Positions 2,795 through 60,744 of a DNA stretch of 64,000 bases are shown in pieces (the stretch's first letter is position 1; each line of letters begins with the position of its first letter). The notes beneath the pieces are model-generated. The model saw only the letters and a list, made by a program, of their open reading frames with translations. It was not told where the DNA came from and made no database searches. Source of the DNA: an uncultured Pseudobdellovibrionaceae bacterium (GTDB lineage: Bacteria > Bdellovibrionota > FAC87 > UBA2466); NCBI GenBank assembly GCA_964604555.1, contig CAZRZK010000001.1, forward strand, positions 205,991 through 269,990, read 5' to 3'. Position numbers and translations under genes: made by a program.

Positions 2795-2869
<75 letters not shown>

Positions 2870-2956: not shown

Positions 2957-4006
2957 ATGCCTTTCATAGGTTTGCTCCTCACTACTTTAATGGCAGCCCC
3001 CCAAGCTTTTTACCTTCAGGAAATAGGCGAGACTTGCAATTGGATGTTACGCAACGCAGAAAAAAAGCAGGTAAAAACCTTCCATCAAACCAAGGCCTGT
3101 CCGAGTCAGATTTTGCTCGACTCAAAAGAAAAGCGAACCCTTTATATTCAAGAAAAAAAACTCTACTCCCATAGTTGGGATCACGCTCCGGCGACTGCCA
3201 AGCTAATCGCAGAACTTCCCTCGTTGCCTCACAATGAGTTTGATGGCGAGCTTATTTTGACCGAGCCCGAAAGGAAAATGCGGATTGTTTATCTTCAGGA
3301 ACTCAAGGAGGGAGAAGTCCAGATTAAAGAGGACAAAAGGTATTACCTCTATAAGGGAAAGTGGATTGAGGGAAGAGAGCCCGCAGTTGGCGTACCGGCA
3401 TTTGCAATTGTTCAGGACCTAGAAAAAGATGGAAAATGGGTCGAAAAACAGATGGTCCAGACCGACACTGGTGCTTGCGATACAGTCGGATTGGACATGT
3501 TGGACAGAAGCCAAAGAAAATTGGCGAGTGGAATAGAAGTCATGCCGAAGGCTGGGGGGACGATGCCTTTTGTTCAGATGGGATGGCAACCCATTTCCAA
3601 GTTCGGATTAGAGGCGCCCGATTTGGAAAAGATAAAAAAACAGTTTCCGAAGTTTGATACCGATGAGAGTGAGATTGTGGCTTTTTCATGGGGAGAGAAG
3701 AAGCTTCTTTTTTTCCTGAAAACTCATGTCGATACTTTTGCCTATCCAGAAGCGCCCATTTTCATTGGAAGTAAAAAGGGTGATGCCATCAATTTTTTTG
3801 CGGAGAAACCAGAGAAGCCGGGCCGAAAAACATTTTCCTTTCACCGTGCCTCGCCTTTTTTGGCTTTGGAAGAGACCGAGACTTTTCCCAGACACAATGT
3901 GACCATTTTAAAAGAAGGGGAAACCGAACCTTGGGACCGAGTTGAATGGGTTCGGCATAATTCTTTTTCGTGGGTTGATGAATCGTTTTTTAAGATTAAG
4001 GATTAA
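2957..4006 (+). CDS. Hypothetical secreted protein (N-terminal hydrophobic signal-like segment), no recognisable domain
   Basis: 349 aa ORF sandwiched between tRNA-Cys and tRNA-Arg; coding-like composition. Confidence 0.5.
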   Translation: MPFIGLLLTTLMAAPQAFYLQEIGETCNWMLRNAEKKQVKTFHQTKACPSQILLDSKEKRTLYIQEKKLYSHSWDHAPATAKLIAELPSLPHNEFDGELILTEPERKMRIVYLQELKEGEVQIKEDKRYYLYKGKWIEGREPAVGVPAFAIVQDLEKDGKWVEKQMVQTDTGACDTVGLDMLDRSQRKLASGIEVMPKAGGTMPFVQMGWQPISKFGLEAPDLEKIKKQFPKFDTDESEIVAFSWGEKKLLFFLKTHVDTFAYPEAPIFIGSKKGDAINFFAEKPEKPGRKTFSFHRASPFLALEETETFPRHNVTILKEGETEPWDRVEWVRHNSFSWVDESFFKIKD

Positions 4007-4007
4007 G

Positions 4008-4081
4008 TGGGCGGTGAGGGATTCGAACCCCCGGCCCCGTGGTTCGAAGCCACGTGCTCTATCCAACTGAGCTAACCGCCC
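4008..4081 (-). tRNA. tRNA-Arg (anticodon TCG), no encoded CCA
   Basis: Reverse complement GGGCGGTTAGCTCAGTTGGATAGAGCACGTGGCTTCGAACCACGGGGCCGGGGGTTCGAATCCCTCACCGCCCA; acceptor GGGCGGT/ACCGCCC, anticodon loop CTTCGAA. Confidence 0.85.
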
Positions 4082-6676: not shown

Positions 6677-7846
6677 GTGAAGTCTGCCCCTATAACTAAC
6701 ATACCGAGTCAAGAAGAGCGCGTTAGAGAACTCGAACGGAAGCTCGAAACCCTCACCTTGGAGATTAAGCAACGAGAAGAATTCTTAAGCGTCTGCGCAC
6801 ATGATCTGCGTTCTCCCTTAGGTCTAATCCAGACCAGCCTTCAGATGGTGCTGAAAGCGGGGAAATTACAGCCGATGCAGGAGGAATTACTGACCCGAGC
6901 GAAACGGCAATCGGTCCAGGCAATACAATTGATTAAAGATCTCCTCGATGTGATGTCCCTGGAGCAAGGACTCAAACCTTCCTATGAGCTTTTGGGACTT
7001 GATACCCTTTTAAAGGAATTTTGGAACGATCACCAATTGGAAAGTGAAGCCAAGGGAATTCGGTTTGAATACCAAAATGAGATCCCTCAATGGCGTATTT
7101 TAGGGGATGCTGACAGGCTCCGTCAGCTACTCCAAAATCTTTTCACTAACGCCGTTAAATTCACCGATCCCAAAAAGAAGATTTTATTGACGGTAAAACC
7201 ATTTCAGGGCCGACGTCGAAATGATCCCACCCACCCGATGGTGATTGTCAGCATTCAGGATGAAGGAAAAGGGATTCCAGAAGGGGAAATCAAAAAGATT
7301 TTCGATCGCTTTTCACAGGTCAAAGGAGCAGGACGACAAGAGGGTAGAGGATTGGGATTAACTGTCGCGAAACAGATCTCCAATCTTCACGACGGGAACG
7401 TTTGGGTCGAAAGTCAGTCAGGAGTGGGGTCGACTTTTCATGTGTTGTTGCCTTATGCGATAGCTCAAGGAAATTTGGAAGAGTTTCACCCGAAGCGCAT
7501 TTTGATCTGTGAGCCTTCACTTGAGAAGCGCGATGCCTATTACGGCGATTTAGCCAAAAATGGCTACGAGCTTTTCTTCGCCAATGACGGTGTGGACACT
7601 TTGACCTACGCCTTTCATCTTAAACCCCACTTTGTGATCCTTTCGGAACTGAGCCAGAAGCTCCATTCGGCCGATGTCGCGGGCATGTTGAAGACCGAAA
7701 TCGCTTTTCGGAAGGTAAGGGTATTGCTTGCGCACGAAGTTACCGGTCCTAAATGCGAAAGTAGCGCTCTTTACGATGAAATATTGATGCTTCCATTCAC
7801 CAAGGAAGCATTTGATCGCTTCTTATTCAGTGCTCAAGACAAATAG
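6677..7846 (+). CDS. Cytoplasmic sensor histidine kinase with C-terminal degenerate (pseudo-)receiver domain
   Basis: GTG start; H-box CAHDLRSPL, N/G boxes (NLFTNAVKFT, GRGLGL); C-terminal 120 aa resembles receiver fold but acidic pocket replaced (ILICEPS, FVILSELS). Confidence 0.75.
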   Translation: MKSAPITNIPSQEERVRELERKLETLTLEIKQREEFLSVCAHDLRSPLGLIQTSLQMVLKAGKLQPMQEELLTRAKRQSVQAIQLIKDLLDVMSLEQGLKPSYELLGLDTLLKEFWNDHQLESEAKGIRFEYQNEIPQWRILGDADRLRQLLQNLFTNAVKFTDPKKKILLTVKPFQGRRRNDPTHPMVIVSIQDEGKGIPEGEIKKIFDRFSQVKGAGRQEGRGLGLTVAKQISNLHDGNVWVESQSGVGSTFHVLLPYAIAQGNLEEFHPKRILICEPSLEKRDAYYGDLAKNGYELFFANDGVDTLTYAFHLKPHFVILSELSQKLHSADVAGMLKTEIAFRKVRVLLAHEVTGPKCESSALYDEILMLPFTKEAFDRFLFSAQDK

Positions 7847-7855
7847 CAAAAGGGG

Positions 7856-7888
7856 TGTCATTGCGAGGCTGTCCGCCACGCAATGACA
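7856..7888. repeat. Short hairpin copy of the GTCATTGCG palindromic repeat family between convergent genes
   Basis: tgtcattgcg...cgcaatgaca perfect 10 bp stem; lies between stop of kinase gene (7846) and stop of convergent lipoprotein gene (7906). Confidence 0.5.
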
Positions 7889-7905
7889 GTTTTTGCGTAA
7901 ACCAA

Positions 7906-17579: not shown

Positions 17580-17690
17580 GTCATCTCGGTAGACCCAGCG
17601 CCATATTAGAACCCAGTTTCATAAAGGAACCACCTGTTATGCACGCCAGTGCTGGCATCTCCCTTGCACATACAGAGAGCAACTTTAACT

Positions 17691-17719
17691 AGATTTTGTC
17701 GCGATTCGCGACAAAATCT
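17691..17719. promoter_or_regulatory. 29 bp near-perfect palindrome AGATTTTGTCGCGATTCGCGACAAAATCT, plus related half-site CGCGACAGAATTT at 17821..17833, upstream of gene 17848
   Basis: Seen directly in the sequence; 13 bp arms, 3 nt spacer; typical operator architecture for a dimeric repressor. Confidence 0.45.
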
Positions 17720-17847
17720 ATCCTGAGGCGCAAGCCGAAGGATCTTAACGCAAGGTTTTATGCCTGCGAGACGAGATCCTTCACTTCGTTCAGGATAAAT
17801 TCCGTCGCATTTCTTCGAAACGCGACAGAATTTAACTAGGAGACTTT

Positions 17848-19149: not shown

Positions 19150-19240
19150 AACGAGATTGCTTCGTCGCTTTGCTCCTCGCAATGACCAACCGTTTGTCAT
19201 TGCGAGGAACGAGCGCAGCGAGTGACGCGGCAATCTCGCA
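19150..19240. repeat. Copy of palindromic REP-like element (GATTGCTTCGTCGC / TCCTCGCAATGAC / GTCATTGCGAGGA / GCGGCAATCTC)
   Basis: gagattgcttcgtcgctttgctcctcgcaatgaccaaccgtttgtcattgcgaggaacgagcgcagcgagtgacgcggcaatctcgc; intergenic before the DegP/HtrA-family protease gene. Confidence 0.7.
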
Positions 19241-19259
19241 GCTGTGATATATATAAATA

Positions 19260-20345
19260 ATGTTCCTAATTATTAAGTGTCTCATCCTAAATAGCGTCGC
19301 GGCTCCGCTCCTTCAAGATGAACAGAACAACGTCGATGTTTATCAACGAGTCAACGGGGCCGTCGTCAATATCACGACCACCACCCTCCGCCGGGACTTT
19401 TTCTTAGATGTGGTTCCTCAAAAAGGGCAAGGTTCGGGAGTTGTTCTGAAGCCAGAGGGCTATGTCATCACCAATTTCCATGTGGTTGGAAATGCAGTGA
19501 ATGTGGAGGTTACTCTCCATGATAAAACCCAGTTCAAAGCCAAGGTGATTGGACTCGATCCCGATTCCGATCTCGCTCTTCTCAAGATCGACCCTAAAGG
19601 AAAAAAGCTGACTTCGGTTGAGTATGGAAATGGCGAGAAATTAATGGTGGGGCAGAAGACCATGGCCATTGGAAATCCTTTTGGGTTTGGCGGATCTTTG
19701 AGTGTCGGCGTGATCAGCGCGCTCGGAAGAGATATTCGGGCTACGACCGATCGGTTGATCCGCGATATTATCCAGACCGATGCCGCAATTAACCCGGGTA
19801 ATTCTGGCGGCCCGCTATTGGATAGCTCGGGAAATCTCATCGGCATCAATACCCAGATCTTTTCACCCAGTGGCGGCAGCCATGGGATCGGCTTTGCTAT
19901 TTCAGTGAAGACGGTGAAAAGAGTGGTTGAACAGCTGATCCAGTTCGGGCAAGTGTTGCGCCCCGATCTTGGAATTGAAGCGGTTGGATTAGGCGGTGAC
20001 CTTCTTCAATTTTTTGGCATGCCGATTTCTCAAGGGGTGATGATTCTGGCCTTTGATCGCGGGTCGCCTGTCTATCGCGCAGGGTTAAAGCCTGCAACCG
20101 GTGAGCGAATCCTGGGATTCCGTCGTATTCCAGTCGGAGGAGATGTGATTTTCCAAGTCGATAATCAAGAGGTGGGTACGTTGCGCGATATCCTCGACTA
20201 CATTTCCGAAAAAAAAATCGGCGATACGGTCACCCTCCACTATGTTCGTGGCAAAGCGAAACGGCAGGCTAAAGTGAAGTTGAGTATTCCGAATGGGGGA
20301 AGGGCGGCGGATGCGGAAACGGGGCAGGTTTACGAGAGCCTTTAA
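19260..20345 (+). CDS. DegP/HtrA-family periplasmic serine protease with one PDZ domain
   Basis: Catalytic triad context ITNFHVV (His), DLALLKI (Asp), GNSGGPLLD (Ser); C-terminal PDZ-like region. Confidence 0.85.
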   Translation: MFLIIKCLILNSVAAPLLQDEQNNVDVYQRVNGAVVNITTTTLRRDFFLDVVPQKGQGSGVVLKPEGYVITNFHVVGNAVNVEVTLHDKTQFKAKVIGLDPDSDLALLKIDPKGKKLTSVEYGNGEKLMVGQKTMAIGNPFGFGGSLSVGVISALGRDIRATTDRLIRDIIQTDAAINPGNSGGPLLDSSGNLIGINTQIFSPSGGSHGIGFAISVKTVKRVVEQLIQFGQVLRPDLGIEAVGLGGDLLQFFGMPISQGVMILAFDRGSPVYRAGLKPATGERILGFRRIPVGGDVIFQVDNQEVGTLRDILDYISEKKIGDTVTLHYVRGKAKRQAKVKLSIPNGGRAADAETGQVYESL

Positions 20346-20599
20346 CGATAGACTTCTTTCCGGTGTGCCACTTTTACTACCCAAACGATCAATTCTTTGT
20401 CTTGGATTGAGTAAACAATTCGATAGGGCCCTTTTCGGATTCGGTATTTCTCCTCTCCCGAAAGTTTCTCAGAGCCCATAGGTCTGGGATCGGTAGTTAA
20501 TCCTTTAATTGTTTTTAAAATGGGTTGTAAATAGTTTTTTGGAAGGTTTTCTATTTCTTTTTGGGCCGATTTTTTAACAATGAGGCTATATTTTACCAT
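20342..20599 (-). CDS. RelE/ParE-family type II toxin
   Basis: 85 aa; ...YRIRKGPYRIVYSIQDKELIVWVVKVAHRKEVYR typical RelE/ParE C-terminus; overlaps upstream antitoxin gene by 14 nt. Confidence 0.8.
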   Translation of the reverse strand: MVKYSLIVKKSAQKEIENLPKNYLQPILKTIKGLTTDPRPMGSEKLSGEEKYRIRKGPYRIVYSIQDKELIVWVVKVAHRKEVYR

Positions 20600-20819
20600 C
20601 TCGTTTTAATTTCTTAACAAGTTGTTCAAACGTGATTCCACTTTCATTTGCCCGTTCTTCAAATGCTTCTAAGTCCTCCGCATCTTCGCTCAAGTAGCGT
20701 TGAATCGCCTCAGCCACGATAGCCGAAACGGAACGTTCGGTATCTACTGCTTTCAGTTGGATGGCCTTGAATAACTTTGGCTCAAAATAGACGGTGGCTC
20801 TTTTTGATAAACCCTTCAT
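20586..20819 (-). CDS. Ribbon-helix-helix type II antitoxin (partner of RelE/ParE toxin)
   Basis: 77 aa; N-terminal RHH-like KRATVYFEPKLFKAIQLKAV; located immediately upstream of the toxin in the same orientation. Confidence 0.7.
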   Translation of the reverse strand: MKGLSKRATVYFEPKLFKAIQLKAVDTERSVSAIVAEAIQRYLSEDAEDLEAFEERANESGITFEQLVKKLKRDGKI

Positions 20820-21090: not shown

Positions 21091-22665
21091 ATGATAAACT
21101 GGCTCTGTTTAATAGTGTTCAGTGTTTTCGCCTTAGCCGATGAAGCGCCGAATCCCAAAGAAGTTTACATCGAATCTTTCAGTCACAATGGTTCAGGTTG
21201 TCCGATTGGTTCGACCGCTTCCGTTCTTTCTGGGGATGCAAAAGCCCTTACCGTTTTATTTGATCGTTTTAGTGCGAGCACCGAATCGGGAAGTCGACGG
21301 GATTTTAAAGCCTGTTCCCTCGATGTGAAGTTGCATGTGCCTTCCGGTTGGTCCTTCGCCCTTTTTCAAACGCAAGTGCGGGGTTTTGCCAATATTGCGT
21401 CGACCAGCATCGGAACTCAGCGTTCTCGTTACACCTTTGGTGGTCAACGGCTTGCGGTTTTGGCAAAGCAGATCCCGGGCCCTTTTGCGGATGACTATAT
21501 CCATGAAGAGACGGCTCCCATCTCTTCACTTGTTTATTCTCCTTGTGGAGGAGAGCGGAGCTTGGGTGTGCTCACCAGTTTAGAATTAGACGGGCCGAAT
21601 TCTTTGATGACCGTTGATTCAACCAATGGCGAACTGGTTCAGAAATACCAGATGAACTGGAAACGTTGTACAGGAGCAGAGTCGATTGGTCCGGTGAATT
21701 TTACGCCGAACTTTTCCCAGGTGCGGGTGTTAGATGGAGATACGGGAAAAGATGTGGCCCGCATCCAAGCCTATGCGCCTGAGGTGAGGGGCGGAATGCA
21801 TGTGGCCGCTTGTGATCTGAATGGAGATGGCGTTTCCGATGTGGTGACCGGAACGGGAAAGGGAGCGCCTCCGCACGTCAGGGCCTTTGATGGGAATAAT
21901 GGTCAGGCATTAAATCATCCTTTGAGTAGTTTTTTTGCCTATGCCACCTCATTTATAGGTGGGGTGAATGTGGGGTGTGGAGATATCGACGGCGATGGAC
22001 GGCAAGATCTCATCACGGGAGCGGGTCCCGGAGCGGGATCGCATGTGATTGTCTGGAGTGGCAGAACCGGCGCTGCGATTCGAAGTTTCTTTGCCTATCC
22101 TAATTTTACTGGAGGAGTCACCGTCGCCTCTACCGATCTCAATCGAGATGGAGCGGCTGACATCATTACGGGAACGGGAGCAGGAGGCGGCCCCCACGTG
22201 AAAGTATTTGATGGTCGAACCGGTAATGAGATTCGGAGCTTCTTTGCTTTCGAGCCCAGTTTCAGTGGTGGGGTAAAAGTCGCGGGGGGAGACCTGAATC
22301 AGGATGGTTTCGGCGATATCATTGTGGGTGCAGGCCCTGGTGGTGGACCTCACGTAACCGCCTTTAGTGGAGCCACTCAACAAATATTACAAAGTTTCTT
22401 TGCTTACGACGTGAAGTTTACTGGGGGAGTCACTGTTGCGGTGGCTGATATGGACGGAGATGGAGTGAATGACATTGTGACGGCCGCCGGAAAAGGGGGC
22501 GGCCCTCATATTAAAGTGATCAATGGCATGACGGGACTCTCGCTCGAAGGGTGGAATGGATCCTTCTGGGCCTTCACTCCCACCTTTAGGTATGGAGTCG
22601 AGGTGGCGGCAGGTTCTCCTCGTCGGTTTTTCCTGGTGCCAGCGAGTGGAAGTGCTTATCGGTAG
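21091..22665 (+). CDS. Secreted protein with unknown N-terminal domain followed by seven FG-GAP-like repeats (beta-propeller)
   Basis: Signal peptide MINWLCLIVFSVFALA; seven roughly 47 aa repeats DxNxDGxxDxxxGxGxGGxPHVxxFxGxTG...SFFAY.. also visible as ~141 bp tandem repeats in DNA. Confidence 0.75.
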   Translation: MINWLCLIVFSVFALADEAPNPKEVYIESFSHNGSGCPIGSTASVLSGDAKALTVLFDRFSASTESGSRRDFKACSLDVKLHVPSGWSFALFQTQVRGFANIASTSIGTQRSRYTFGGQRLAVLAKQIPGPFADDYIHEETAPISSLVYSPCGGERSLGVLTSLELDGPNSLMTVDSTNGELVQKYQMNWKRCTGAESIGPVNFTPNFSQVRVLDGDTGKDVARIQAYAPEVRGGMHVAACDLNGDGVSDVVTGTGKGAPPHVRAFDGNNGQALNHPLSSFFAYATSFIGGVNVGCGDIDGDGRQDLITGAGPGAGSHVIVWSGRTGAAIRSFFAYPNFTGGVTVASTDLNRDGAADIITGTGAGGGPHVKVFDGRTGNEIRSFFAFEPSFSGGVKVAGGDLNQDGFGDIIVGAGPGGGPHVTAFSGATQQILQSFFAYDVKFTGGVTVAVADMDGDGVNDIVTAAGKGGGPHIKVINGMTGLSLEGWNGSFWAFTPTFRYGVEVAAGSPRRFFLVPASGSAYR

Positions 22666-22683
22666 AATCAGGCCCGCCACAAA

Positions 22684-22772
22684 ATTGTCATTGCGAGGAG
22701 CCGAAGGCGACGAAGCAATCGCGTTATTGAAGTTGAATTTACGCGATTGCTTCGTCGCCTTCGGCTCCTCGC
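22684..22772. repeat. Near-perfect palindromic REP-like element (38 bp arms, about 20 bp loop)
   Basis: attgtcattgcgaggagccgaaggcgacgaagcaatcgcg...cgcgattgcttcgtcgccttcggctcctcgcaattgtaa directly after the FG-GAP gene stop. Confidence 0.75.
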
Positions 22773-22780
22773 AATTGTAA

Positions 22781-23020
22781 ATGTTACGTAATTCGGTGAT
22801 GGAATTAGAAATTTAATGGGTTTAGCCCCGCCTAGAATATTCAGTAGAATTCAGGATGTTTGGCGGGGTTAGTCATTTTAAAATCTTCGAGAAACCTTTG
22901 TATCTTACTTATCAGAAGGCTATACACTTTTGTTCTATTGCGGGTAATGTAAATAACGGTGTTCGTTGCATAGAACAACACCCATTAAATTTCTAATTCC
23001 ATCACCGAATTAGGTAACAC
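22781..23020. mobile_element. MITE-like non-autonomous element: 30 bp perfect (about 40 bp imperfect) terminal inverted repeats enclosing about 160 bp with internal hairpins; no ORF
   Basis: attcggtgatggaattagaaatttaatggg at 22791..22820 and exact reverse complement cccattaaatttctaattccatcaccgaat at 22981..23010; flanks extend IR with 2 mismatches; abuts repeat at 22684..22772 and a repeat half-site at 23024..23040. Confidence 0.5.
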
Positions 23021-23063
23021 TTACAGCAATGACAATTTTGTGGCAGAGCAGATAAAAAAATCG

Positions 23064-23285
23064 TTAAGTTTTTTTCGATTTTTTATTTCTAAGAGAGTTC
23101 AGGAGTATAGTGGGCTCATCTTTCCGTTGATGATATGCTTCGAGATCGATGGCATCTTCTAAATGCTCAACCAGAGCTTTTTCAATCAAATATTGCAACT
23201 TGATGCCATGACGTTTGCAGTAGGCGGAAGCGGCTTGTTTGACATCGGCATCTATGATAGTCGAAAGGCTAACCGATCTTTTCAT
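23064..23285 (-). CDS. Orphan ribbon-helix-helix antitoxin-like protein (paralog of 20586..20819 family; cognate toxin missing)
   Basis: 73 aa; shares C-terminal E-D-x-x-DLEA-x-x-x-R motif with the antitoxin at 20586..20819; downstream position where a toxin is expected is occupied by the MITE-like element. Confidence 0.55.
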   Translation of the reverse strand: MKRSVSLSTIIDADVKQAASAYCKRHGIKLQYLIEKALVEHLEDAIDLEAYHQRKDEPTILLNSLRNKKSKKT

Positions 23286-23330: not shown

Positions 23331-24959
23331 TTGCAGAGGGAGCGGGTGGGTATGCCTATTCTAGGTTTATTCACGATATTAGTGCTGCTTTCATTCTGGA
23401 TCGCCCCCTGGGGAAACTTCCCCTTAAATGATGATTGGCAATACAGTCTGATTGCCCATCTCCTAGCGGTCGATGGGAAAGTGCGCTTGATCCTGCCGGT
23501 CGCTCCGTCGTTAGTGCTGCAATCCTATCTTGGGAGTTGGGTGATTCAGGGGTTTGGTTTCAATCACCTCTATTTGCGATTGCTCACCTTATTGATCTCG
23601 GCCATTTGGCTTGTCGCCATCGATTGGATTCTACGGGAGTTGCAAGTCGCTCCCCTTTTCAGATTTTTGGCAGGACTGTTGGTCATTCTTAACCCACTCT
23701 TTGTCCATGTTGCTTTAAGTTTTATGACGGAACCGTATGGTTTTGCTTTTGCGACCTTAGGGGTGGCCTTTTGGTTTTATGGACGTCGTTCTTCCCATTC
23801 CTGGATCTTCTACAATATAGGGGCGATTTTATTGGGCTTGTCCTTTTGGGTTCGGCAATTGTGCGCGCTCTATTTTCCAGCGCTGATTTTTGCGGAGGCG
23901 GTTTTGGCTTGGCAAGAAAAGCAGTTTTGGAAAAGAGCGGTCCAGTGGGTCCTTCCGAGTCTCTTGTTTACTCTCCTTGTGGTTGGGTTTGCGGTTTGGG
24001 TCCGTCAGACCAAGAATTTAACGGTCGCCTTTGAAGGGAATCTGGTGGCCCTGTTGATTCCCAATGTTGGGAATTTTATTTTACAGGGTTTTGTATTCCT
24101 GGTTTATGGAGCCTTCTTTTTCTCTCCTTGGCTGGTGCAATGGAAAGTTCCCTTCCAAGAAAAAAAATACCGATGGGTGTTGGGTCTGCTTTTCGCCATT
24201 GCGATTGGGGTCTATATCGGCTCCACAAAAAGGTATCCGATGAAGGCCAATCTCCATGCGGTCTTTCCTTTTTTGGGAAATGTGATGAACCCTTCCGGAT
24301 TGGGGCCGATTACCCTGACCGATCGATATACTAATGATTATCCTACCCAGCTTCCCCATTTTACGCCCATATGGATATTGATTGAATGTCTTCTGATAAT
24401 CGTTGCCCTCAATTGGAAAAGGGTTCTGCCCGCAAAAAAACACTTTGATTTTGTTTCTCTTTTTGCTCTGGGTGCCATCGGCATTCAGTTCCTGATTATC
24501 ACTCAAGCCTTTCAGCAGGGGATTATCGATCGTTATTTGATGGGGTTTATATTACCCGCGCTTTTGCTCCTGGCCCGAATATCCCATTCCCTTCATTTTT
24601 CCTGGAAAAAGGCTGCCTTTCCGGTAATTTTTTTGGCGCTCTATTCCTGGGGTGGAGAATATGACTATTTCCGGTGGAATGAAGTCCGCTGGCAGCTGGT
24701 TTCACTGGCACAATCCCAATCGATTCCCATGGATCAGCTGGATGGGGGATTTGAGGTGAATGGCTCCCTCCATTTTCAAGACATCCACGCCGATCCCTAT
24801 TCTGATCCCCTTTGCGGCCCGCAGAAAAGTTGGTTCTGCGGAGATCTGAAATATGGCATTGGCTGGGAACCCCTTTCCAGTCGGGTAATTCTAGAATCCC
24901 GCAAGGTGAACTCTCTCTGGGTCAACTACCCCGAGATTTTTCTCTATTCACAAAGGTAA
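23331..24959 (+). CDS. Polytopic inner-membrane protein, GT-C-like (ArnT/PMT-like) glycosyltransferase fold candidate
   Basis: 542 aa, at least 11 predicted TM helices, extracytoplasmic loop motif near N-terminus (NDDWQY); weak resemblance only. Confidence 0.4.
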   Translation: MQRERVGMPILGLFTILVLLSFWIAPWGNFPLNDDWQYSLIAHLLAVDGKVRLILPVAPSLVLQSYLGSWVIQGFGFNHLYLRLLTLLISAIWLVAIDWILRELQVAPLFRFLAGLLVILNPLFVHVALSFMTEPYGFAFATLGVAFWFYGRRSSHSWIFYNIGAILLGLSFWVRQLCALYFPALIFAEAVLAWQEKQFWKRAVQWVLPSLLFTLLVVGFAVWVRQTKNLTVAFEGNLVALLIPNVGNFILQGFVFLVYGAFFFSPWLVQWKVPFQEKKYRWVLGLLFAIAIGVYIGSTKRYPMKANLHAVFPFLGNVMNPSGLGPITLTDRYTNDYPTQLPHFTPIWILIECLLIIVALNWKRVLPAKKHFDFVSLFALGAIGIQFLIITQAFQQGIIDRYLMGFILPALLLLARISHSLHFSWKKAAFPVIFLALYSWGGEYDYFRWNEVRWQLVSLAQSQSIPMDQLDGGFEVNGSLHFQDIHADPYSDPLCGPQKSWFCGDLKYGIGWEPLSSRVILESRKVNSLWVNYPEIFLYSQR

Positions 24960-29349: not shown

Positions 29350-29684
29350 TCTTTGTTTGCTCCTTCTTTAATCCAATCGTAAATGGTCTGTTTGTCCCGA
29401 TCGGAAATCGGATCATAGCGCTTGTCCCTAGGGGGCATGGGATCATCCTCATCGATCAGTTTTAAATAGAGGGTGCTGTCTTTGGGTTTACCCGGTTTTA
29501 CCATCCCCAGTTTTTTGCTGAGGAGGGTTTCGTAATCCTTTAAAGGGCGTAATTTGGCCTCCCCTTTTTCGGAATGGCAGTCAAAGCACTGGTATTTGAT
29601 AAAAAGTTTCTGGATATCAGAAAAATTGGGTGCTGCCACAACTAATGGGCAAGCAAGCCCAAACCAAACCATCAAGCCCCGCAT
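29346..29684 (-). CDS. Small secreted c-type cytochrome domain protein (PSCyt1-like: CxxCH ... MPP ... WI..GA)
   Basis: Signal peptide; CFDCH heme-binding motif, followed by LRPLKDYETLL...KPGKPKDSTLYLKLIDEDDPMPP...IYDWIKEGA matching the planctomycete-type cytochrome c module; first gene of operon. Confidence 0.6.
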   Translation of the reverse strand: MRGLMVWFGLACPLVVAAPNFSDIQKLFIKYQCFDCHSEKGEAKLRPLKDYETLLSKKLGMVKPGKPKDSTLYLKLIDEDDPMPPRDKRYDPISDRDKQTIYDWIKEGANKE

Positions 29685-29720
29685 TAATGCACCGTATCAT
29701 TGTGAATAAAAAACGCAATA

Positions 29721-29790
29721 CCTAAGAAGGTTCATTGTGGTTAAGCCAGAATAGATCTTTTACATGACTGGTCAGCAGTAAAGTACGGGG
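29721..29790. repeat. Left 70 bp imperfect direct repeat bounding the TA islet; decayed duplicate of the SDR gene 3' end
   Basis: cctaagaaggttc...agatcttttacatgactggtcagcag... about 78% identical to 32561..32630; reverse-complement translation DLFWLNHNEPS* mimics SDR C-terminus DLFLFRLREPS*. Confidence 0.6.
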
Positions 29791-30218
29791 ACTGAATTTC
29801 GTACCTGTGGCAAACGAAAATCAGACTGGTTATAAGGCCATCACACTTGAATTGTTGGCATCAGCGTTGCTCTTCTAATCGCAGTGCCGAGATGGATTAG
29901 AATAGAAACGAAGGGTATGAAGCCTCGTTCAAAAAAAGGAAGATTTACCGAGCGATAAATGATGAAACAACCACCGAATTAAAGCTTGTTCGAATAATTG
30001 ATGAATCAGGATACTCTTACCTTTTTTAGAAGAAAAGTTTCCAGGGGCGAGCTCTGGCTGGCTTCTTCTCGGTGTAGTCATAAACCTTGCAATGGCAGTA
30101 ACCATTCTTTTGGGACTATGGCGGGTATTCGTCCCAAAGATTCTCTAAATTCTAAAGACATTCTTGCAAAGAATCCACGCTTGACCGATTCCTGATCTTT
30201 TAGGTGGGTTGGCCATTA

Positions 30219-30482
30219 TCATCCTATTTTGAGATTAAGCCCTTCGATACGAAGCTGATCCTGCAAGGCTAACTTTACAAGCCATTCGGGTGGCAGTTTA
30301 AGCGTTTTGGCTACCGACTTAGCCAGCCTAATACTGATATTGAATCGGTTTTTCTCGATATCGCACAACCTTTGCTTAGAAATGCCGAGTAGTTTGGCCA
30401 TCTCCGTTTGATTGAGCCCTTCCCCCTGACGGTGCACATTAATAAATTCTCCGAATGAAAGATCCTTTGTCCTAATAGTCAT
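30219..30482 (-). CDS. HigA-like antitoxin, XRE-family HTH
   Basis: 87 aa; HTH LNQTEMAKLLGISKQRLCDIEKN; overlaps upstream toxin gene by 11 nt; toxin-first arrangement typical of HigBA. Confidence 0.8.
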   Translation of the reverse strand: MTIRTKDLSFGEFINVHRQGEGLNQTEMAKLLGISKQRLCDIEKNRFNISIRLAKSVAKTLKLPPEWLVKLALQDQLRIEGLNLKIG

Positions 30483-30828
30483 GTTTAGTTACCTCAAGAA
30501 CCTCAATTTGATCAAAACCTGACTGACGATAAATGATTCGATAAGACCTGGAAAGTCGGACTGACCTCTGACCAAACCGCTTTCCCATCAAGGGCTCATC
30601 ATGAAACCCTTTGTACTTTCGAGCCTCTAGTAATCCTAAATATTGAATCATATCTACCCAATACCCGAACTTTTTGGCGATGTGCTGAGGCACACGTCTT
30701 AAAGATTTCTGTGCTCCTCCGGAGACTCTTATCTCCACGCAAACAACTCCTTTATAGTACGTATTTTTTACGTACATGTCAATATCTGAAAGTGATTTTG
30801 CAGGTTTTGCGCCTAGACTTAAGGGCAT
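30472..30828 (-). CDS. HigB-like toxin (RelE/ParE superfamily, plasmid-maintenance-system killer type)
   Basis: 118 aa; ...KRFGQRSVRLSRSYRIIYRQSGFDQIEVLEVTKHDY typical HigB C-terminus. Confidence 0.8.
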   Translation of the reverse strand: MPLSLGAKPAKSLSDIDMYVKNTYYKGVVCVEIRVSGGAQKSLRRVPQHIAKKFGYWVDMIQYLGLLEARKYKGFHDEPLMGKRFGQRSVRLSRSYRIIYRQSGFDQIEVLEVTKHDY

Positions 30829-31065
30829 GAACTAGCCGAAGGAGTTCAAATATTGGACTGCCCTGGCTAGTTTTCAGTCTCGAAAACCTTCTTTGTTTTA
30901 TATGAAGAAACTAGTTTGGTGCCAACGGCACGCCTATGGCAAGGAATGGCCATTAATTCGAAATGCTCACATGACTGATTCTCGGTACCTAGAGACCAGT
31001 AAATGGTCTCTTTCAGTTATCCCCATGCTTCAAAATTTGGCATCGACATTGCTCTGCTGGACATT

Positions 31066-31332
31066 GTGCCAAAGATATCCGAATTCTACGGGATCACTAT
31101 TTGAATGTACTGGTTCGACACCCAGAAACATAAGAAACCTCATTTTCATGCACGCTATCAAGGCCTGGAAGCTGTCTTTGACCTGGATGGAAATCCAATA
31201 AAAGGGGTGCTTAGCCCTACTGCAGCTCGTCTTATCAAGCAATGGTGCCAGAAGAATTCTCATGATATCTATGAGGCATGGGAAAAAGCAAAACAAGGCA
31301 AGGAACTCCCGTGGATAAGTCCCCTGAAGTAA
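31066..31332 (+). pseudogene. DUF4160-family gene interrupted by in-frame TGA at codon 13 (31102..31104); ORF-track CDS 31105..31332 is the downstream part
   Basis: Same frame: GTG-PKISEFYGITI-TGA-MYWFDTQKHKKPHFHARYQGLEA... matches DUF4160 N-terminal consensus MPxIsxFYGIxIxMY..D..PPHFHARY across the stop. Confidence 0.5.
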
Positions 31333-31346
31333 TAGTCAGTTTCGAG

Positions 31347-31589
31347 ATGCCGAGCTATGGTCTGGTTATTATCGATACCTCGAACAGGTTGCGATATCAC
31401 GCAGATTTAAGCAGCTTGTCCCAAACCTACTGTTATCCGAAGAATCTGGAACAGTGGAAAAAAGCCTCTATTGACTCTTATGGCTTAGCCCTTGTCTGGC
31501 AAAGTCGGTTTGAAGTTCACATCGATCAAATTATTGGCCTTGCGTCCAATACTGAGTCGCTCGGTAGCGCAAAGAAACATACCGGATAG
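31347..31589 (+). CDS. DUF2442-family protein (usual partner of DUF4160; putative TA-like pair)
   Basis: Start at internal Met MPSYGLVIIDTSNRL...; ORF-track 31278 start would overlap DUF4160 gene. Confidence 0.55.
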   Translation: MPSYGLVIIDTSNRLRYHADLSSLSQTYCYPKNLEQWKKASIDSYGLALVWQSRFEVHIDQIIGLASNTESLGSAKKHTG

Positions 31590-31845
31590 AATCTGTCTCA
31601 GGTTCGATCTTCTTTCTTTAGTCATATTGGCCATTTAATCCCGAGGTCCAGACTTCGGCTTTTGGAGACCAGGAATTGGTCTCCATTGGTTTGCGGTCGC
31701 GCTTGAATTAATGGTCCCGATATTGCTTCAAATGTAGGCAAGTGCGGACAATCTGAGGAATTCCCAGCAGGATTGCCAGGTTATCCGACAAGAGTTCCAG
31801 TTGCTAATACCAACTATAATTGGTATCATGTAGGGGAGAGAGTCG

Positions 31846-32022
31846 ATGCCGAAGTCGGGCAAGGAGATCTTGCGTTTGTATGAGAAAGAGGGCTGGAGAG
31901 TACTCCGGCAGAGGGGCAGCCACGTTATTGTTGGGAAGGGTGGCGAACGCGAAACCATCCCGATGCATAAGGAGCTAAAGAAAGGACTTGAGAGGTCGCT
32001 GCTCAAGAGGATTGGAAAATGA
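31846..32022 (+). CDS. hicA: HicA toxin (mRNA interferase, YcfA-like)
   Basis: 58 aa not in ORF track: MPKSGKEILRLYEKEGWRVLRQRGSHVIVGKGGERETIPMHKELKKGLERSLLKRIGK; stop overlaps hicB start (ATGA). Confidence 0.8.
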   Translation: MPKSGKEILRLYEKEGWRVLRQRGSHVIVGKGGERETIPMHKELKKGLERSLLKRIGK

Positions 32023-32560: not shown

Positions 32561-32630
32561 CCTAAGAAGGTTCTCTGAGTCTAAACAAAAAGAGATCTTT
32601 TACATTACTGGTCAGTAGCAGGCGTCGGGG
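32561..32630. repeat. Right 70 bp direct repeat (overlaps 3' end of SDR gene)
   Basis: Partner of 29721..29790; contains intact SDR C-terminal codons and stop. Confidence 0.6.
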
Positions 32631-33374
32631 AATAAAGCGGTGAAATCGGAGCATTAGTTTTCCATTTAAGGTGGGGAAGATCTCCAGCTGTTTTCGATTG
32701 AGACCTGCCAAAATCTCTTTGGCCACCTTTTCAGGGGTAGAGATAAAAGGGGCCATCCAATTGGGAAGGCCTCCCTTTTGCCCGCGTTCAATCATGGAGG
32801 TGTCGACAAAGCCGGGAGAGGCGAGCACCAGTTTTACGGGTGAATCTTTTAATTGGAGCTCTTGTCGTAGGGCCCGCGTGAAGCCGACGACGGCATGCTT
32901 GCTGGCTGAATAGGAGGTGAGGTAGGGACAGCTGATATGGCCTGCCACCGAGGCAATATTCACGATGATCCCTTTCCCTTGTTGTTCCATCTTCTCAATA
33001 GCAAGACGAGTTCCTAGGACCACTCCCCCTAAGTTGATCCGAAGGGTGGTTTCATATTCTTCGAAACTCTGCCGCATGAAATCGCCTTTGCCACTGATAC
33101 CGGCATTGTTGATCCATAGAAAGATAGGTTTGGCTTGTCCCGATATTTTTGTGATCGCCTCTTTCATCTGGGTGGGATTAGCAATATCAACGGCAAGCGC
33201 GCTGAAGGAATGGCCTTCTTTAGAGGCGGCGTCTTCTAAAGCAGCCAAATCTTTTTGATTCCTATCGAGTCCCCAAACATGGGCGCCCAGATTGAGGCAC
33301 TGGAGGGTGAGGCATTTTCCAATTCCACCAGCCGCTCCGGTGATCACCACTGTTTTTCCCATAAGTGATTTCAT
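32562..33374 (-). CDS. Short-chain dehydrogenase/reductase (SDR) family oxidoreductase
   Basis: TGAAGGIGKCL cofactor motif, NNAG, catalytic YxxxK (YSASK); 270 aa. Confidence 0.85.
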   Translation of the reverse strand: MKSLMGKTVVITGAAGGIGKCLTLQCLNLGAHVWGLDRNQKDLAALEDAASKEGHSFSALAVDIANPTQMKEAITKISGQAKPIFLWINNAGISGKGDFMRQSFEEYETTLRINLGGVVLGTRLAIEKMEQQGKGIIVNIASVAGHISCPYLTSYSASKHAVVGFTRALRQELQLKDSPVKLVLASPGFVDTSMIERGQKGGLPNWMAPFISTPEKVAKEILAGLNRKQLEIFPTLNGKLMLRFHRFIPRRLLLTSNVKDLFLFRLREPS

Positions 33375-42576: not shown

Positions 42577-43020
42577 GGAGATTGCTTCGTCGCCGGAGCC
42601 TGCCGTGAGCGCAGCGTGGCGGTCTCCTCGCAATGACAAATGAGCTGTCATTGCGAGGCCCACCCCTCTTTCGTTGCCATTGTTGTTGACATGTTTTCGG
42701 AAATGAATTTGAGCCTCCCTGTACGATCGAATCCCCAACAGATAAGATTCGAGTAACCCCCTTTTTTTTAAAAAGGGAATATCTGGTCCTCGAAATCCTT
42801 CTTTATCCAACATTTCATTGTATAGAAACCGCGAATGGGGTTTCGGTTCATAGCCAAATTCAGGTGAGTAATTGGCTTCGATTCGAGTATTGAAAGCCGG
42901 CCTATCTTCGGGAAGCTGTGACAATGCAGTAATGAAGCGAAAAGGAATGTGTAAAATCGCTTCAGCAAATAATATTCCTGAAAACAGTCCCAGGACAATT
43001 AGTAAAAGTTTTCTTTTCAT
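42520..43020 (-). CDS. Small secreted hypothetical protein; 3' end of the ORF reads through the REP-like element and into the convergent gene, so true C-terminus is uncertain
   Basis: Signal peptide MKRKLLLIVLGLFSGILFAEA; last about 45 codons are encoded by the repeat (…HLSLRGDRHAALTAGSGDEAISL…). Confidence 0.4.
   Translation of the reverse strand: MKRKLLLIVLGLFSGILFAEAILHIPFRFITALSQLPEDRPAFNTRIEANYSPEFGYEPKPHSRFLYNEMLDKEGFRGPDIPFLKKRGLLESYLLGIRSYREAQIHFRKHVNNNGNERGVGLAMTAHLSLRGDRHAALTAGSGDEAISLKLIGDDFHDVHHAHFFG
42577..42662. repeat. REP-like palindromic element copy
   Basis: ggagattgcttcgtcgcc...tctcctcgcaatgaca...gtcattgcgaggcc immediately after the membrane-anchored Fe-S oxidoreductase gene stop. 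Confidence 0.7.
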
Positions 43021-43317: not shown

Positions 43318-43443
43318 TTTTTCCTCCGTTAGGAGGCCTGATTACAGAAAATTAATTTTAAGATCAAAAGGTATTTTTGTTTTTTGAAAAATATTGTTTC
43401 TAAAAATCTGAAACATTCCGTAGAAGAGGACGGTCATATTTCT

Positions 43444-43751
43444 GTCATTGCGAGGAGCTTGAAGGGCGACGTGGCAATCGTGCTCTGTTGAAATCATCGT
43501 CTTTTATCCAATTTTGTCGGGTTTGGACTCGCCTACCGGCTGACGTAGAAACTCAGATAATCTGCGAGGCTAATGGTTCTGAAGCTTCGAGAGGTCTTTG
43601 TTCCTTGCGCTTTGGAGCTCTTTAACTTTCGTGCTGGAGAAGTTTAGTAAAGTGGCGAAGAAGTCAAGCCAGCCCGATACCCGACAAAATTGGATAAAAG
43701 ACGATGATTTCAACAGAGCATGGCAATCGCGTCGCCCAACGTCATTGCGAG
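43444..43751. repeat. Composite inverted-repeat structure: two about 75 bp arms (41 bp exact core), each carrying a GTCATTGCGAG repeat core, flanking about 155 bp
   Basis: gtcattgcgaggagcttgaagggcgacgtggcaatcgtgctctgttgaaatcatcgtcttttatccaattttgtcggg at 43444..43521 versus cccgacaaaattggataaaagacgatgatttcaacagagca...gtcattgcgag at 43679..43751. Confidence 0.6.
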
Positions 43752-43789
43752 ACCCCATAGGGGTCGAAGCAATCTCCTGGTTTGTATAT

Positions 43790-44491
43790 TTATTTCCTTT
43801 TAATACAAAGAACGCCTGAAAGAACTTCCGGCTCCTGCTTTATTTCTTTATCCGAAAGGAGGTCAAAGACAGCCTTGTCTTCACGCAACCAAACTTGAAA
43901 ATGACGAGGGGTGAGCCCCCCGGCTTCTTTAAAAGACAACTTTAATTTTTCCAACGAAGGACGAATATCCTCTTTCTGAGGGATCACCCACTTCACATCG
44001 TTACAGGCAGCCTCACCTGCTTTTTGCGATTTAAGTTCGGGAAGTAATAGCCAACTGACGACGCCATCTCGAGTTATTGTCGGATTTTTCTTTTCAGTTC
44101 TTTTCAAAGGGAGGCTGTTTTTTTTCATCAAGCTTAAATAGGGGGCCATGATCTCTTCTTGCACCTCTAATTCCATATCAAAGAAGGTTCCCCACTTGGT
44201 TTTTTCCAATTGGATGGCCGCCTCATTCTTTTCGGCCTTTGAAGAAACCGACGTTTGGGTGATGAGTTTCTCTAATGCAACCACCTCATCCAAGGTCCAA
44301 GTACTTTTCTTCTGTTCTACCTCTCTGCAGATCTGAGAAAGGGTTTCATAGGCCTTCCCGAGATATCGATTGGCAATCCAATCTCCACCCGATTCATTTC
44401 CGGCCATCAAAGTTGAATGGACTAAGCAGAGGCTAAATATCAACTGGGAATAACTGCATCGAAAGTGCATAAACTCTCCTCTTTTTTCCAC
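43790..44491 (-). CDS. Hypothetical protein (possible signal peptide); start uncertain because of overlap with upstream gene
   Basis: 233 aa ORF; N-terminus hydrophobic LIFSLCLVHSTLMAG. Confidence 0.4.
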   Translation of the reverse strand: MEKRGEFMHFRCSYSQLIFSLCLVHSTLMAGNESGGDWIANRYLGKAYETLSQICREVEQKKSTWTLDEVVALEKLITQTSVSSKAEKNEAAIQLEKTKWGTFFDMELEVQEEIMAPYLSLMKKNSLPLKRTEKKNPTITRDGVVSWLLLPELKSQKAGEAACNDVKWVIPQKEDIRPSLEKLKLSFKEAGGLTPRHFQVWLREDKAVFDLLSDKEIKQEPEVLSGVLCIKRK

Positions 44492-45197
44492 GTTCCAACT
44501 GTTCGCAAACGGTTCGGCGAAATGATTTCATGCTTTGGCGGGCATCCTCCAGTTTTGTCGGGTCGGCCGCCATCACCACGGTGTAATATGCCAAATCTTC
44601 CGGCAGGTTCTTATCCAAAGCCTCTTCTGCCTTTTTCAAATATTCCTGGGTATGGTTTCGGATCGCCGGATCGGCCAAGGTATCTTGAGTGGCCAGGGGC
44701 GGTGCGATCTGCCGATATTTTCCGTCATTTTCTTCGATCAATTTCAGACGCTTCATGCGTTCTAATGCTTCTTCCGCTTCCCGTTTTAAAATGCCTAGCT
44801 TTTTTGCAATCCATTCCGGATCGGAGTTGGAGTTCGGCAGCTCTGAGAGGCTCAGCATAGCGTAGTGATACCACTGCGAGATCAGTTGGAAGGTGTCGAG
44901 TTCCAACACCTGATAAATATCTTCCGCCGTTGCCGCCTTCTTTGCATTGACCGCTTTTAAAAGTTCAGCGCGATCTTTAGGGGAGAGATTCAGCCTCAAG
45001 GCGATCTGTTTGGCCATTTTTCGGGTCAGACGTCGTTTTCCAGAGAGCACTCCTGATAAGGTCGCTGGACTTATCCCTAATTTTCCGGCAAAGGCCCGCA
45101 TCGAAAGGGCAGGGTTTTTCTTTTGACGACTTTGGAACTCCCCCTGAAGCCATCGCCGATGGTTTCGAAAGGATTGTTCCGTGATGAGAGTTTCCAT
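44433..45197 (-). CDS. HTH-containing putative transcriptional regulator of unknown family
   Basis: N-terminal HTH-like LSMRAFAGKLGISPATLSGVLSGKRRLT; 254 aa; divergent from gene 45385. Confidence 0.5.
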   Translation of the reverse strand: METLITEQSFRNHRRWLQGEFQSRQKKNPALSMRAFAGKLGISPATLSGVLSGKRRLTRKMAKQIALRLNLSPKDRAELLKAVNAKKAATAEDIYQVLELDTFQLISQWYHYAMLSLSELPNSNSDPEWIAKKLGILKREAEEALERMKRLKLIEENDGKYRQIAPPLATQDTLADPAIRNHTQEYLKKAEEALDKNLPEDLAYYTVVMAADPTKLEDARQSMKSFRRTVCEQLERGKKRRVYALSMQLFPVDI

Positions 45198-48126: not shown

Positions 48127-48169
48127 GGAATTGCGAGGAACGAGCGTAGCGAGTGACGCGGCAATCGCG
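48127..48169. repeat. Half-copy of REP-like element (GAATTGCGAGGAACGAGCGTAGCGAGTGACGCGGCAATCGCG)
   Basis: Near-identical to second half of copy at 19195..19240; sits between convergent genes. Confidence 0.6.
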
Positions 48170-48185
48170 TAGCAATAGCAGGGAA

Positions 48186-54394: not shown

Positions 54395-54409
54395 CTTTAT
54401 CATGCGGGG

Positions 54410-54494
54410 AGATTGCTTCGTTGCTCCGCTCCTCGCAATGACAGAAGTGCGCCGTCAGTGTCATTGCGAGGAGCGGAGCGACGAAGCAATCTCG
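54410..54494. repeat. Best-preserved REP-like palindromic element (35 bp arms, 1 mismatch, 15 nt loop)
   Basis: gagattgcttcgttgctccgctcctcgcaatgaca gaagtgcgccgtcag tgtcattgcgaggagcggagcgacgaagcaatctc between the OsmC/Ohr-like gene and fumC. Confidence 0.8.
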
Positions 54495-54514
54495 TCAATT
54501 TAAAGGAGAATAAA

Positions 54515-60327: not shown

Positions 60328-60498
60328 ATTCCGACTTTATAGGTGAAGCTTGTTTTCGCCGCAATCATTGAACTCAACAGTTTAATCGATCCAAATAGGG
60401 GAAAGCAGGGTTGATCCTGGCTAATTTTTGAAGCGAAAAAAGTTGTGTTATATAACGCAACTTATTTTGATGCTCTATCTAGTCGCTGTCGGGAAATG

Positions 60499-60525
60499 CA
60501 AAAAAACAGCCCCGAAGGGGCTCAC
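60499..60525 (-). terminator. Rho-independent terminator on minus strand (GAGCCCCTTCGGGGCTG + TTTTTTT)
   Basis: Plus strand caaaaaaacagccccgaaggggctc; about 220 nt downstream of ompA-family gene stop. Confidence 0.55.
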
Positions 60526-60744
60526 TTTAATGTATTCCCGAAAGCGGCGTATCCCGAGCGCATGCGAGGGATCTCGTCGTAAATGCTTGAGATGACGAGA
60601 TCCTTCGGACTCCGTCCTCAGGATACGTTCCCGTCGGGAACATATTAATGAGGGCCCTCCGGGCCCACCTTTTTGGATTTCCCGACAGGAACTATCTAAT
60701 AGAATAGAAATGGAAAGAAAGTTTCGGGAGGGCCCTTATTCCCC

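Follow-up and report, generated by a model that had tools for sequence, protein, structure and literature searches.

In the 64,000-nucleotide (nt) stretch of an uncultured Pseudobdellovibrionaceae genome analysed here (contig CAZRZK010000001.1, positions 205,991 to 269,990 of the forward strand; hereafter the window), a gene for a 73-amino-acid (aa) ribbon-helix-helix (RHH) antitoxin faces a convergent FG-GAP/DUF4360 gene whose stop codon lies at 22665. Between the two genes sit an inverted doublet of repetitive extragenic palindromic (REP) units, a structure known as REPIN, and, within it, a 250-bp foldback element that we call E1. The anatomy of E1, together with its comparison to a diverged second copy in the same window (E2), suggests that E1 is probably a non-autonomous, non-coding transposable element of the kind called MITE (miniature inverted-repeat transposable element). 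The features of the locus are as follows.

22677 to 22775, no strand assigned: main part of the REPIN-like palindrome, with its left arm at 22677 to 22724 (35/35 complementary inverted pair)
22771 to 22775, no strand assigned: left copy of a GCAAT direct repeat, the putative target-site duplication (read from the sequence)
22776 to 23025, plus strand: E1, a non-coding foldback (MITE-like) element with TG...CA ends, 250 bp (inverted repeat, fold, homology to E2)
22776 to 22821, plus strand: left terminal inverted repeat of E1, 46 nt, pairing with 22980 to 23025 (repeat search)
22822 to 22979, plus strand: interior of E1, 158 nt, conserved with E2 (consensus fold with E2)
22980 to 23025, plus strand: right terminal inverted repeat of E1, 46 nt (repeat search)
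23026 to 23030, no strand assigned: right copy of the GCAAT direct repeat (read from the sequence)
23031 to 23043, no strand assigned: distal 13 nt of the right arm of the REPIN, GACAATTTTGTGG, severed and displaced by E1 (sequence, repeat search)
23064 to 23285, minus strand: intact gene of an orphan DUF6290/RelB-like RHH antitoxin, 73 aa (Pfam, NCBIfam, homologue alignment)

The two arms of E1, spaced 158 nt apart, are complementary at 44 of 46 positions (96%), the mismatches being at 22781 and 22788. They share a 33-nt exact core, TAATTCGGTGATGGAATTAGAAATTTAATGGGT, present in one copy per strand, where 100 shuffles gave an expectation of zero. A preliminary description of this DNA had reported an inverted repeat of 30/30 bases extending to about 40 bp with two mismatches, which was right and slightly conservative. 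The termini read TGTAAATG... on the left and ...CACTTACA on the right, and both abut GCAAT. Prediction of the RNA fold, which had been proposed for an element of about 240 bp, gave −104.3 kcal/mol for the 250 nt of the plus strand (z about −13) and −95.3 kcal/mol for the minus strand (z about −12); over E1 and E2 together, folding is predicted to be very stable on both strands, with z from −11 to −13. The interior contains a hairpin P2, formed by GCCCCGCC/GGCGGGG (about 22822-22831 with 22863-22872) and carrying GTAGAA in its loop, and a hairpin P3, formed by TTGTTCTATTGC/GCATAGAACAA (about 22930-22941 with 22965-22978). A single-stranded stretch of the interior carries the blocks CTTCGAGA (22885-22892) and CTTTGT (22896-22901), both conserved in E2.

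The interior had been described as free of open reading frames (ORFs). In the strict sense this does not hold, since two mechanical ORFs of 46 aa each lie within E1 (22856-22996 on the plus strand and 22841-22981 on the minus strand). The absence of a coding signal does hold: neither ORF has a match in Pfam, both are absent from a collection of 15 billion proteins, and the six-frame translations of E1 and E2 have no reading frame in common. E1 is small and non-coding, as MITEs are (below about 500 bp), and like them E1 and E2 both end in terminal inverted repeats.

The DNA on either side of E1 suggests how the element came to lie where it does. To the left is an inverted pair, 22690-22724 and 22741-22775, complementary at 35 of 35 positions with a spacer of 16 nt; in terms of units, a REP on the plus strand (22687-22724) is followed by the 16-nt loop and by an inverted unit (22741-22775, continued at 23031-23033). 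To the right, the 18 nt that follow E1, GCAATGACAATTTTGTGG (23026-23043), are the exact complement of 22677-22694. It can be seen that, first, E1 interrupts the right arm of the REPIN 13 bp from the base of the palindrome, and secondly, minus the GCAAT duplication, this arm reads ...CTCGCAATGAC..., the mirror of the left arm. Excision in silico of E1 and one GCAAT yielded a perfect 48-bp stem with a 16-nt loop (−104.9 kcal/mol). Because this removal restores a perfect palindrome, E1 appears to have been inserted into an intact REP pair, and the pattern, as it is read here, is the classical signature of insertion into an intact REPIN with a 5-bp target duplication. The preliminary description had seen a complete REP-like palindrome abutting the left end of the element and a half-site at its right end, had proposed that the element entered a REP copy, and had expected target-site duplications. 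All of this was borne out: the half-site is the piece that E1 split off from the palindrome's right arm, GCAAT stands directly outside both ends of E1, and E2 lies in another REP unit.

The units of the host palindrome belong to a REP family, GTCATTGCGAGG...GACGAAGCAATC, of which there are 12 units in the 64 kb of the window, often as inverted or tandem pairs. Each unit contains an internal ATTGC...GCAAT inverted repeat.

7842-7890, 19151-19242, 22677-22775, 42624-42659, 43440-43480, 43735-43775, 48130-48173 and 54409-54495, no strand assigned: REP loci (repeat and pattern search)

Besides the host of E1 there is a further inverted REP pair at 54409-54493. Both the REP unit and the inverted doublet by which REP and REPIN sequences are defined are present in the host palindrome of E1. 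Among the 25 ORFs of the window that were screened against Pfam, no RAYT gene was found. Two exact matches to the REP core GTCATTGCGAG were observed in an unrelated Anaerolineaceae contig (L007), and given these matches the core may be widespread; a full-text literature search with GTCATTGCGAG returned only unrelated papers, as judged by titles and abstracts.

The second copy surfaced in a scan of the whole window for repeats, as the structure 43464-43737.

43481 to 43720, plus strand: E2, second member of the family, 240 bp, with TG...CA ends, perfect arms of 42 nt and an interior of 156 nt (repeat search, nhmmer, alignment)

E2 lies on the same strand as E1; its arms are complementary at 42 of 42 positions, and its interior has 156 nt where that of E1 has 158 nt. 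E2 interrupts a REP unit at a plus-strand GCAAT, and its flanks are direct copies of TGGCAATCG at 43472-43480 and 43721-43729. Joined together, the flanks read GACGTGGCAATCGCGT, which fits the 3' ends of REP units elsewhere, for example GACGCGGCAATCGCGT in the unit at 48130. The two insertions have the same target pentamer, plus-strand GCAAT in a REP unit, and the same orientation (n=2). Their contexts differ: the genes on either side of E1 converge, whereas those flanking E2 both lie on the minus strand, to which E2 is antisense.

The kinship of the two elements was found in their interiors. In single-sequence nhmmer searches the interiors of E1 and E2 were reciprocal best non-self matches on the same strand and in collinear order (E=0.0018 and 0.013). 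Comparison of the interiors (about 157 nt) by blastn gave 62.5% identity over 120 nt, and in a global alignment 92 of 162 columns were identical (z=5.9 against shuffles), with the reverse-complement alignment at background. The blocks GGGTTT, CGCCTA, GTAGAA, GCGnGGnTAnT, CTTCGAGA, CTTTGT and ACCC are conserved with identical spacing, and a 20-base pattern with fixed spacing matched only the E1 and E2 sites in the window. Taken together, these alignments show E1 to belong to a small sequence family with at least one other member, E2.

The interiors also appear to be related in structure. The consensus fold of E1 and E2 consists of a long stem, P1, and two hairpins, P2 (9 bp, loop of 31 nt) and P3, with an unpaired and conserved stretch between P2 and P3. 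In a core alignment of 186 columns all 38 predicted pairs were kept in both copies, 13 of them having changed on both sides, while slid controls paired at 35-51% only. Both internal hairpins noticed in the preliminary description are present, and both are kept through compensatory changes in E2. This conservation of helices is suggestive, two sequences being compared under a structure derived from those same two sequences.

Another reading makes E1 first of all a gene for a structured RNA, or else a hairpin in RNA or DNA that acts in cis and serves the host (as a small RNA, for example, or by stabilising or terminating transcripts), its insertion features then being secondary. The great predicted stability on both strands fits this, as do the conservation of the unpaired blocks and the retention of the two internal helices and of the base of the long stem, with all cells paired (100%) in the copies. 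Against it, the covariation test is a weak one for the reason just given, and Rfam offers no match: at gathering threshold the whole window gave two tRNAs and nothing on E1, and at E ≤ 10 there were just two Plastid-psbN matches on E1 (E=5 and 6.8; gathering score 50 bits) and none on E2. The microRNA-precursor and other matches obtained at E ≤ 10 fell on the perfect REPIN hairpin or its edges. In addition, no promoter-like or terminator-like site was found inside E1, the contexts of the two copies are inconsistent, and both copies interrupt REP units and are flanked by direct repeats, unlike a resident regulatory hairpin. We regard a primary host function of this kind as improbable.

The preliminary description had placed E1 in the toxin slot of the antitoxin gene and had proposed that the element deleted or replaced a ParE/RelE toxin gene once located there. 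The antitoxin itself matches DUF6290 in Pfam with 29.2 bits (cutoff 27) and has weak matches, below the model cutoffs, to RelB families of NCBIfam. A homologue search returned nine proteins, one of which is identical to the query, the other eight being 55-66% identical by BLASTP; in the alignment with these eight homologues identity was 52-64% and all 21 invariant columns were present in the antitoxin. The genomic context was read for six homologues. In five of them a co-directional gene lies directly downstream, and four of these genes are called ParE_toxin (P0003, P0007, P0008 and P0009, at −4 to +13 nt); in the fifth, P0006, the gene lies 14 nt downstream, carries no family call and is cut by the end of the contig. 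The sixth, P0002 (GCA_041749855.1, L001 10001-10219, 64% identity), which ranks first by E-value among the homologues whose neighbourhood was read, is a solitary antitoxin: the next gene is convergent, encodes 70 aa and is not a toxin. Its genomic context is a different one, and no element such as E1 lies nearby. Orphan antitoxins thus appear to recur in the DUF6290 family.

That no toxin follows the 73-aa antitoxin was correct. Between 23063 and the convergent stop codon (22665) there are only the REPIN and E1, with no toxin ORF, and tblastn of four ParE proteins against 22600-23120 gave noise only (at most 18 bits), with no remnant of ParE. In the window as a whole, the sole real match of these four proteins was the ParE of another toxin-antitoxin pair (20345-20590, E=1e-13), which is encoded as follows.

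20342 to 20819, minus strand: intact RHH-ParE toxin-antitoxin pair, with the antitoxin at 20586-20819 and ParE at 20342-20599 (Pfam)

As judged from these comparisons, the 73-aa antitoxin is a true orphan of a normally two-gene family: it matches the domain of type II RelB/DUF6290-ParE antitoxins but is solitary, like P0002. It had been called a paralog of the antitoxin at 20586-20819, which is weakly true, the two having ED-A-x-DLEA in common and being 38% identical over 37 aa (pairwise E=7e-6). Between the ParE at 20342-20599, which lies 2.5 kb away, and a ParE that partners a DUF6290 homologue (L002 10219-10482), identity is 40% (E=1e-13). It is conceivable that the orphan antitoxin still neutralises or regulates the ParE at 20342-20599.

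Replacement of the toxin by E1 fared less well than the observations on which it was built. E1 does occupy the position of the toxin in homologous operons, and its 250 bp are near the length of a ParE gene (261-276 bp in homologues). However, the clean 5-bp duplication, in a REPIN made perfect by removal of E1, implies that the toxin was absent before the insertion, and the insertion of a transposon alone deletes no target. The REPIN starts 20 bp past the stop codon of the antitoxin and ends 11 bp past that of the convergent gene; since it was already complete before E1, there would then have been no room for a toxin gene of about 260 bp. The state before E1 would have consisted of antitoxin, REPIN and convergent gene, and for this reason the loss of the toxin appears to be an earlier and separate event. 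The missing ParE remnant and the orphan state of P0002, with no such element nearby, point the same way. The evidence does not support replacement, which we consider very improbable; the toxin had apparently been lost by the time E1 arrived.

The explanation that we prefer takes E1 for a MITE-like foldback transposable element, non-autonomous and non-coding, and we would give it a probability of roughly two in three. What the sequence shows is integration, with duplication of GCAAT, at a GCAAT pentamer of a REPIN-like palindrome that was there before, in its right arm. The means of mobilisation is inferred: a transposase encoded elsewhere in the genome would act in trans, most likely one of DDE type that makes staggered cuts, and the mobilising enzyme would recognise REP DNA. 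TG...CA termini are typical of the IS3 family, and such ends together with short duplications fit DDE transposases of IS3, IS481, IS21 or Mu type. The part under conservation would be the three-helix core of about 157 nt and the GGGT/ACCC base of the stem, while the remaining arm sequence would need only to pair with itself. The ParE partner of the antitoxin would have been lost earlier, and E1 would have landed afterwards in the vacant slot because a REP target was present there. E1 probably has no dedicated host function.

Several observations weigh against this explanation. First, copies are few. The preliminary description had proposed searching for further copies of the 30-bp terminal repeat; within the window the arm sequence of E1 proved to be unique, blastn found no fragments, and what came to light is the diverged E2, whose arms are not significantly similar to those of E1 (z=1.5) except in GGGT/ACCC on the inner side and TG/CA at the very ends. 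The known copies number only two and have diverged by about 40%. Searches of the window and the fetched loci with nhmmer and the covariance model R1 found E1 and E2 only, the remaining covariance-model matches being plain hairpins. A scan of 185,579 species genomes, the source genome not among them, with the pattern CTTCGAGANNNCTTTGTNNCTTNC gave 9 matches, all by chance; two pattern scans of JGI metagenomes gave 0 matches and 3 chance matches, and four pattern scans of viral collections chance matches only. By blastn, E1 and E2 had no match in plasmids, nor E1 in phages. To our knowledge, and in keeping with the negative Rfam, plasmid and phage searches, E1 has no sequence similarity to any described MITE family. 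Secondly, neither a partner nor a related strain was found. The window holds no autonomous partner with matching ends, and among the 25 ORFs screened there was no transposase or recombinase. As to an orthologous empty site, which such a strain might show, the 542-aa membrane protein encoded next to the antitoxin (23331-24959) has no relative above 36% identity in a collection of 5.8 billion proteins; 14 of the 25 screened ORFs have no Pfam match. The source lineage, by its sequences, is very isolated and has no close relatives. Because no relatives turned up in the plasmid, phage, genome and metagenome scans, the case for mobility of E1 rests on sequence anatomy.

Thirdly, the flanking repeats are unequal, 5 bp in E1 and 9 bp in E2, and one enzyme with a fixed stagger is not expected to yield both. 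To read the E2 flanks as 5 bp (GCAAT), one has to accept CG...TG as its termini. Finally, in ordinary MITE families it is the termini that are the conserved part, and E1 and E2 appear to do the opposite, conserving the interior and not the termini. The unequal repeats and the unconserved termini also allow, as an open alternative, two subfamilies served by different enzymes.

The unequal repeats bear directly on another explanation, by which E1 and E2 are modules moved by site-specific recombination: a circular intermediate would recombine with the GCAAT of a REP unit, its joined ends forming a long palindrome around a GCAAT core, and the flanking duplications would be the crossover core. An IS110-type or other REP-specific recombinase could be involved, comparable to the ssr9/ISPpu9 system. 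Variable core homology would account for repeats of 5 and 9 bp more readily than a fixed stagger, and the use of the same plus-strand GCAAT with the same orientation of the element in both insertions is in line with this explanation; moreover, IS110 elements that target REPs have been described, and so has a non-coding module that is mobilised independently (PMC12288879, PMC1525189). In contrast, the IS110 group has no terminal inverted repeats and uses a 2-bp core (PMC12288879), neither of which is seen in E1 and E2, with their inverted repeats of 42-46 bp and flanks of 5-9 bp; of the traits of that group only the fixed position in REP is found (n=2). Nor is there a recombinase gene among the screened ORFs. 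Guide segments were not found: matches between the interior and its own junctions were no commoner than the chance level estimated by hand (about four 6-mers), and a guide or bridge RNA was rejected as an identity for the interior on the same count. Movement by site-specific recombination seems to us unlikely.

Two further candidates were discarded. Single-strand transposition of the IS200/IS605 or RAYT type leaves no duplication, and is ruled out by the one that flanks E1. A retron non-coding RNA is ruled out as well, there being no reverse transcriptase gene adjacent.

As a foldback transposable element, E1 can be set beside several known systems. Hairpin-forming bacterial MITEs (Correia/CREE of Neisseria, ERIC/IRU of enterobacteria, RUP and MITEAba12; reviewed in PMC10969869) are, like E1, small, non-coding and intergenic, with terminal inverted repeats, a short flanking direct repeat and a very stable hairpin in the transcript. 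E1 and E2 depart from them in that the arms are unusually long (42-46 bp) and differ between copies while the interior is conserved, and in that the target is a specific pentamer in REP units. Insertion sequences of five families have been documented to favour REP sequences as sites of insertion, where they are flanked by short direct repeats of 3-6 bp (PMC1525189). These comprise IS1397/ISKpn1 and ISPsy8 of the IS3 family, ISRm22, and IS621/ISPpu9/ISPpu10/ISPa11 of the IS110 family, and as with E1 the position in REP is fixed and removal of the element with one direct repeat rebuilds the REP (PMC1525189). Direct repeats are 3 bp for ISPsy8 and 6 bp for ISRm22 (PMC1525189), compared with 5 and 9 bp for E1 and E2. 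Unlike these insertion sequences, E1 and E2 have no transposase and lie in another REP family and another host lineage, and no cognate insertion sequence was found.

In Pseudomonas putida, ISPpu9 has a small-RNA module, ssr9, that is mobilised into REP sequences independently (PMC12288879). It is also short, structured and non-coding, stands alone in REPs as E1 and E2 do, and is read as a selfish passenger with a transposase in trans. It differs in having A'/B' boxes instead of long inverted repeats and in recombining at an AG dinucleotide, and its transposase and circular intermediates have been shown experimentally (PMC12288879), whereas E1 and E2 are known here from sequence alone. REPINs, in turn, are inverted REP doublets mobilised by RAYT transposases (PMC3116915, PMC2817692). 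The host palindrome of E1, with two inverted 38-nt REP units and a 16-nt spacer, is like them; E1 itself is not, as it has a duplication at its flanks and nothing of the REP unit's sequence recurs in it.

The window contains other structured or unusual stretches. A structured-repeat family with two members (F1, F2) lies at 60480-60694 and 17690-17835, with the common palindromic core TATCCyGA...GArGGATCT...AGATCCTTC...TCAGGATA; the former has imperfect outer arms of 40 nt, and the latter small perfect hairpins at 17691-17719 and 17797-17833. Kinship with E1 and E2 was considered and rejected, no significant similarity being found, and Rfam gave no match in 60380-60780. A 2.7-kb stretch, 29350-32019, is without an ORF of at least 130 aa. 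A 76-nt direct repeat (75% identity) occurs at 29721-29796 and 32561-32636, 2.8 kb apart, and the second of the two overlaps a short-chain dehydrogenase gene at its 3' end. Two tRNA genes, at 2795-2866 (plus strand) and 4008-4081 (minus strand), lie on either side of an ORF of 349 aa (2957-4006) for which Pfam gave no match. At 44433-45197 the window encodes a DUF4423 protein, and at 62247-62825 a FliL protein.

For the host, E1 and the REPIN likely place a very stable hairpin into the read-through transcripts of the convergent genes. More widely, E1 in its REPIN is a clean textbook case of nested mobile DNA, and it points to REP palindromes as landing pads in a deep-branching, poorly sampled lineage. 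The sole unusual feature is that the interior is conserved and the termini are not. We would allow a small chance that E1 and E2 represent an undescribed class of REP-targeted foldback element whose core of about 157 nt is recognised as RNA or single-stranded DNA. If so, the long stem would be free to vary as long as it pairs, and the element would be a mobile module of structured nucleic acid (a small RNA, a recombinase cofactor or a decoy, for example) hitch-hiking on a REP-specific enzyme, and not a decayed insertion sequence. Should conservation of the interior prove general across many copies, a structured nucleic acid would be the likely functional unit of the element.

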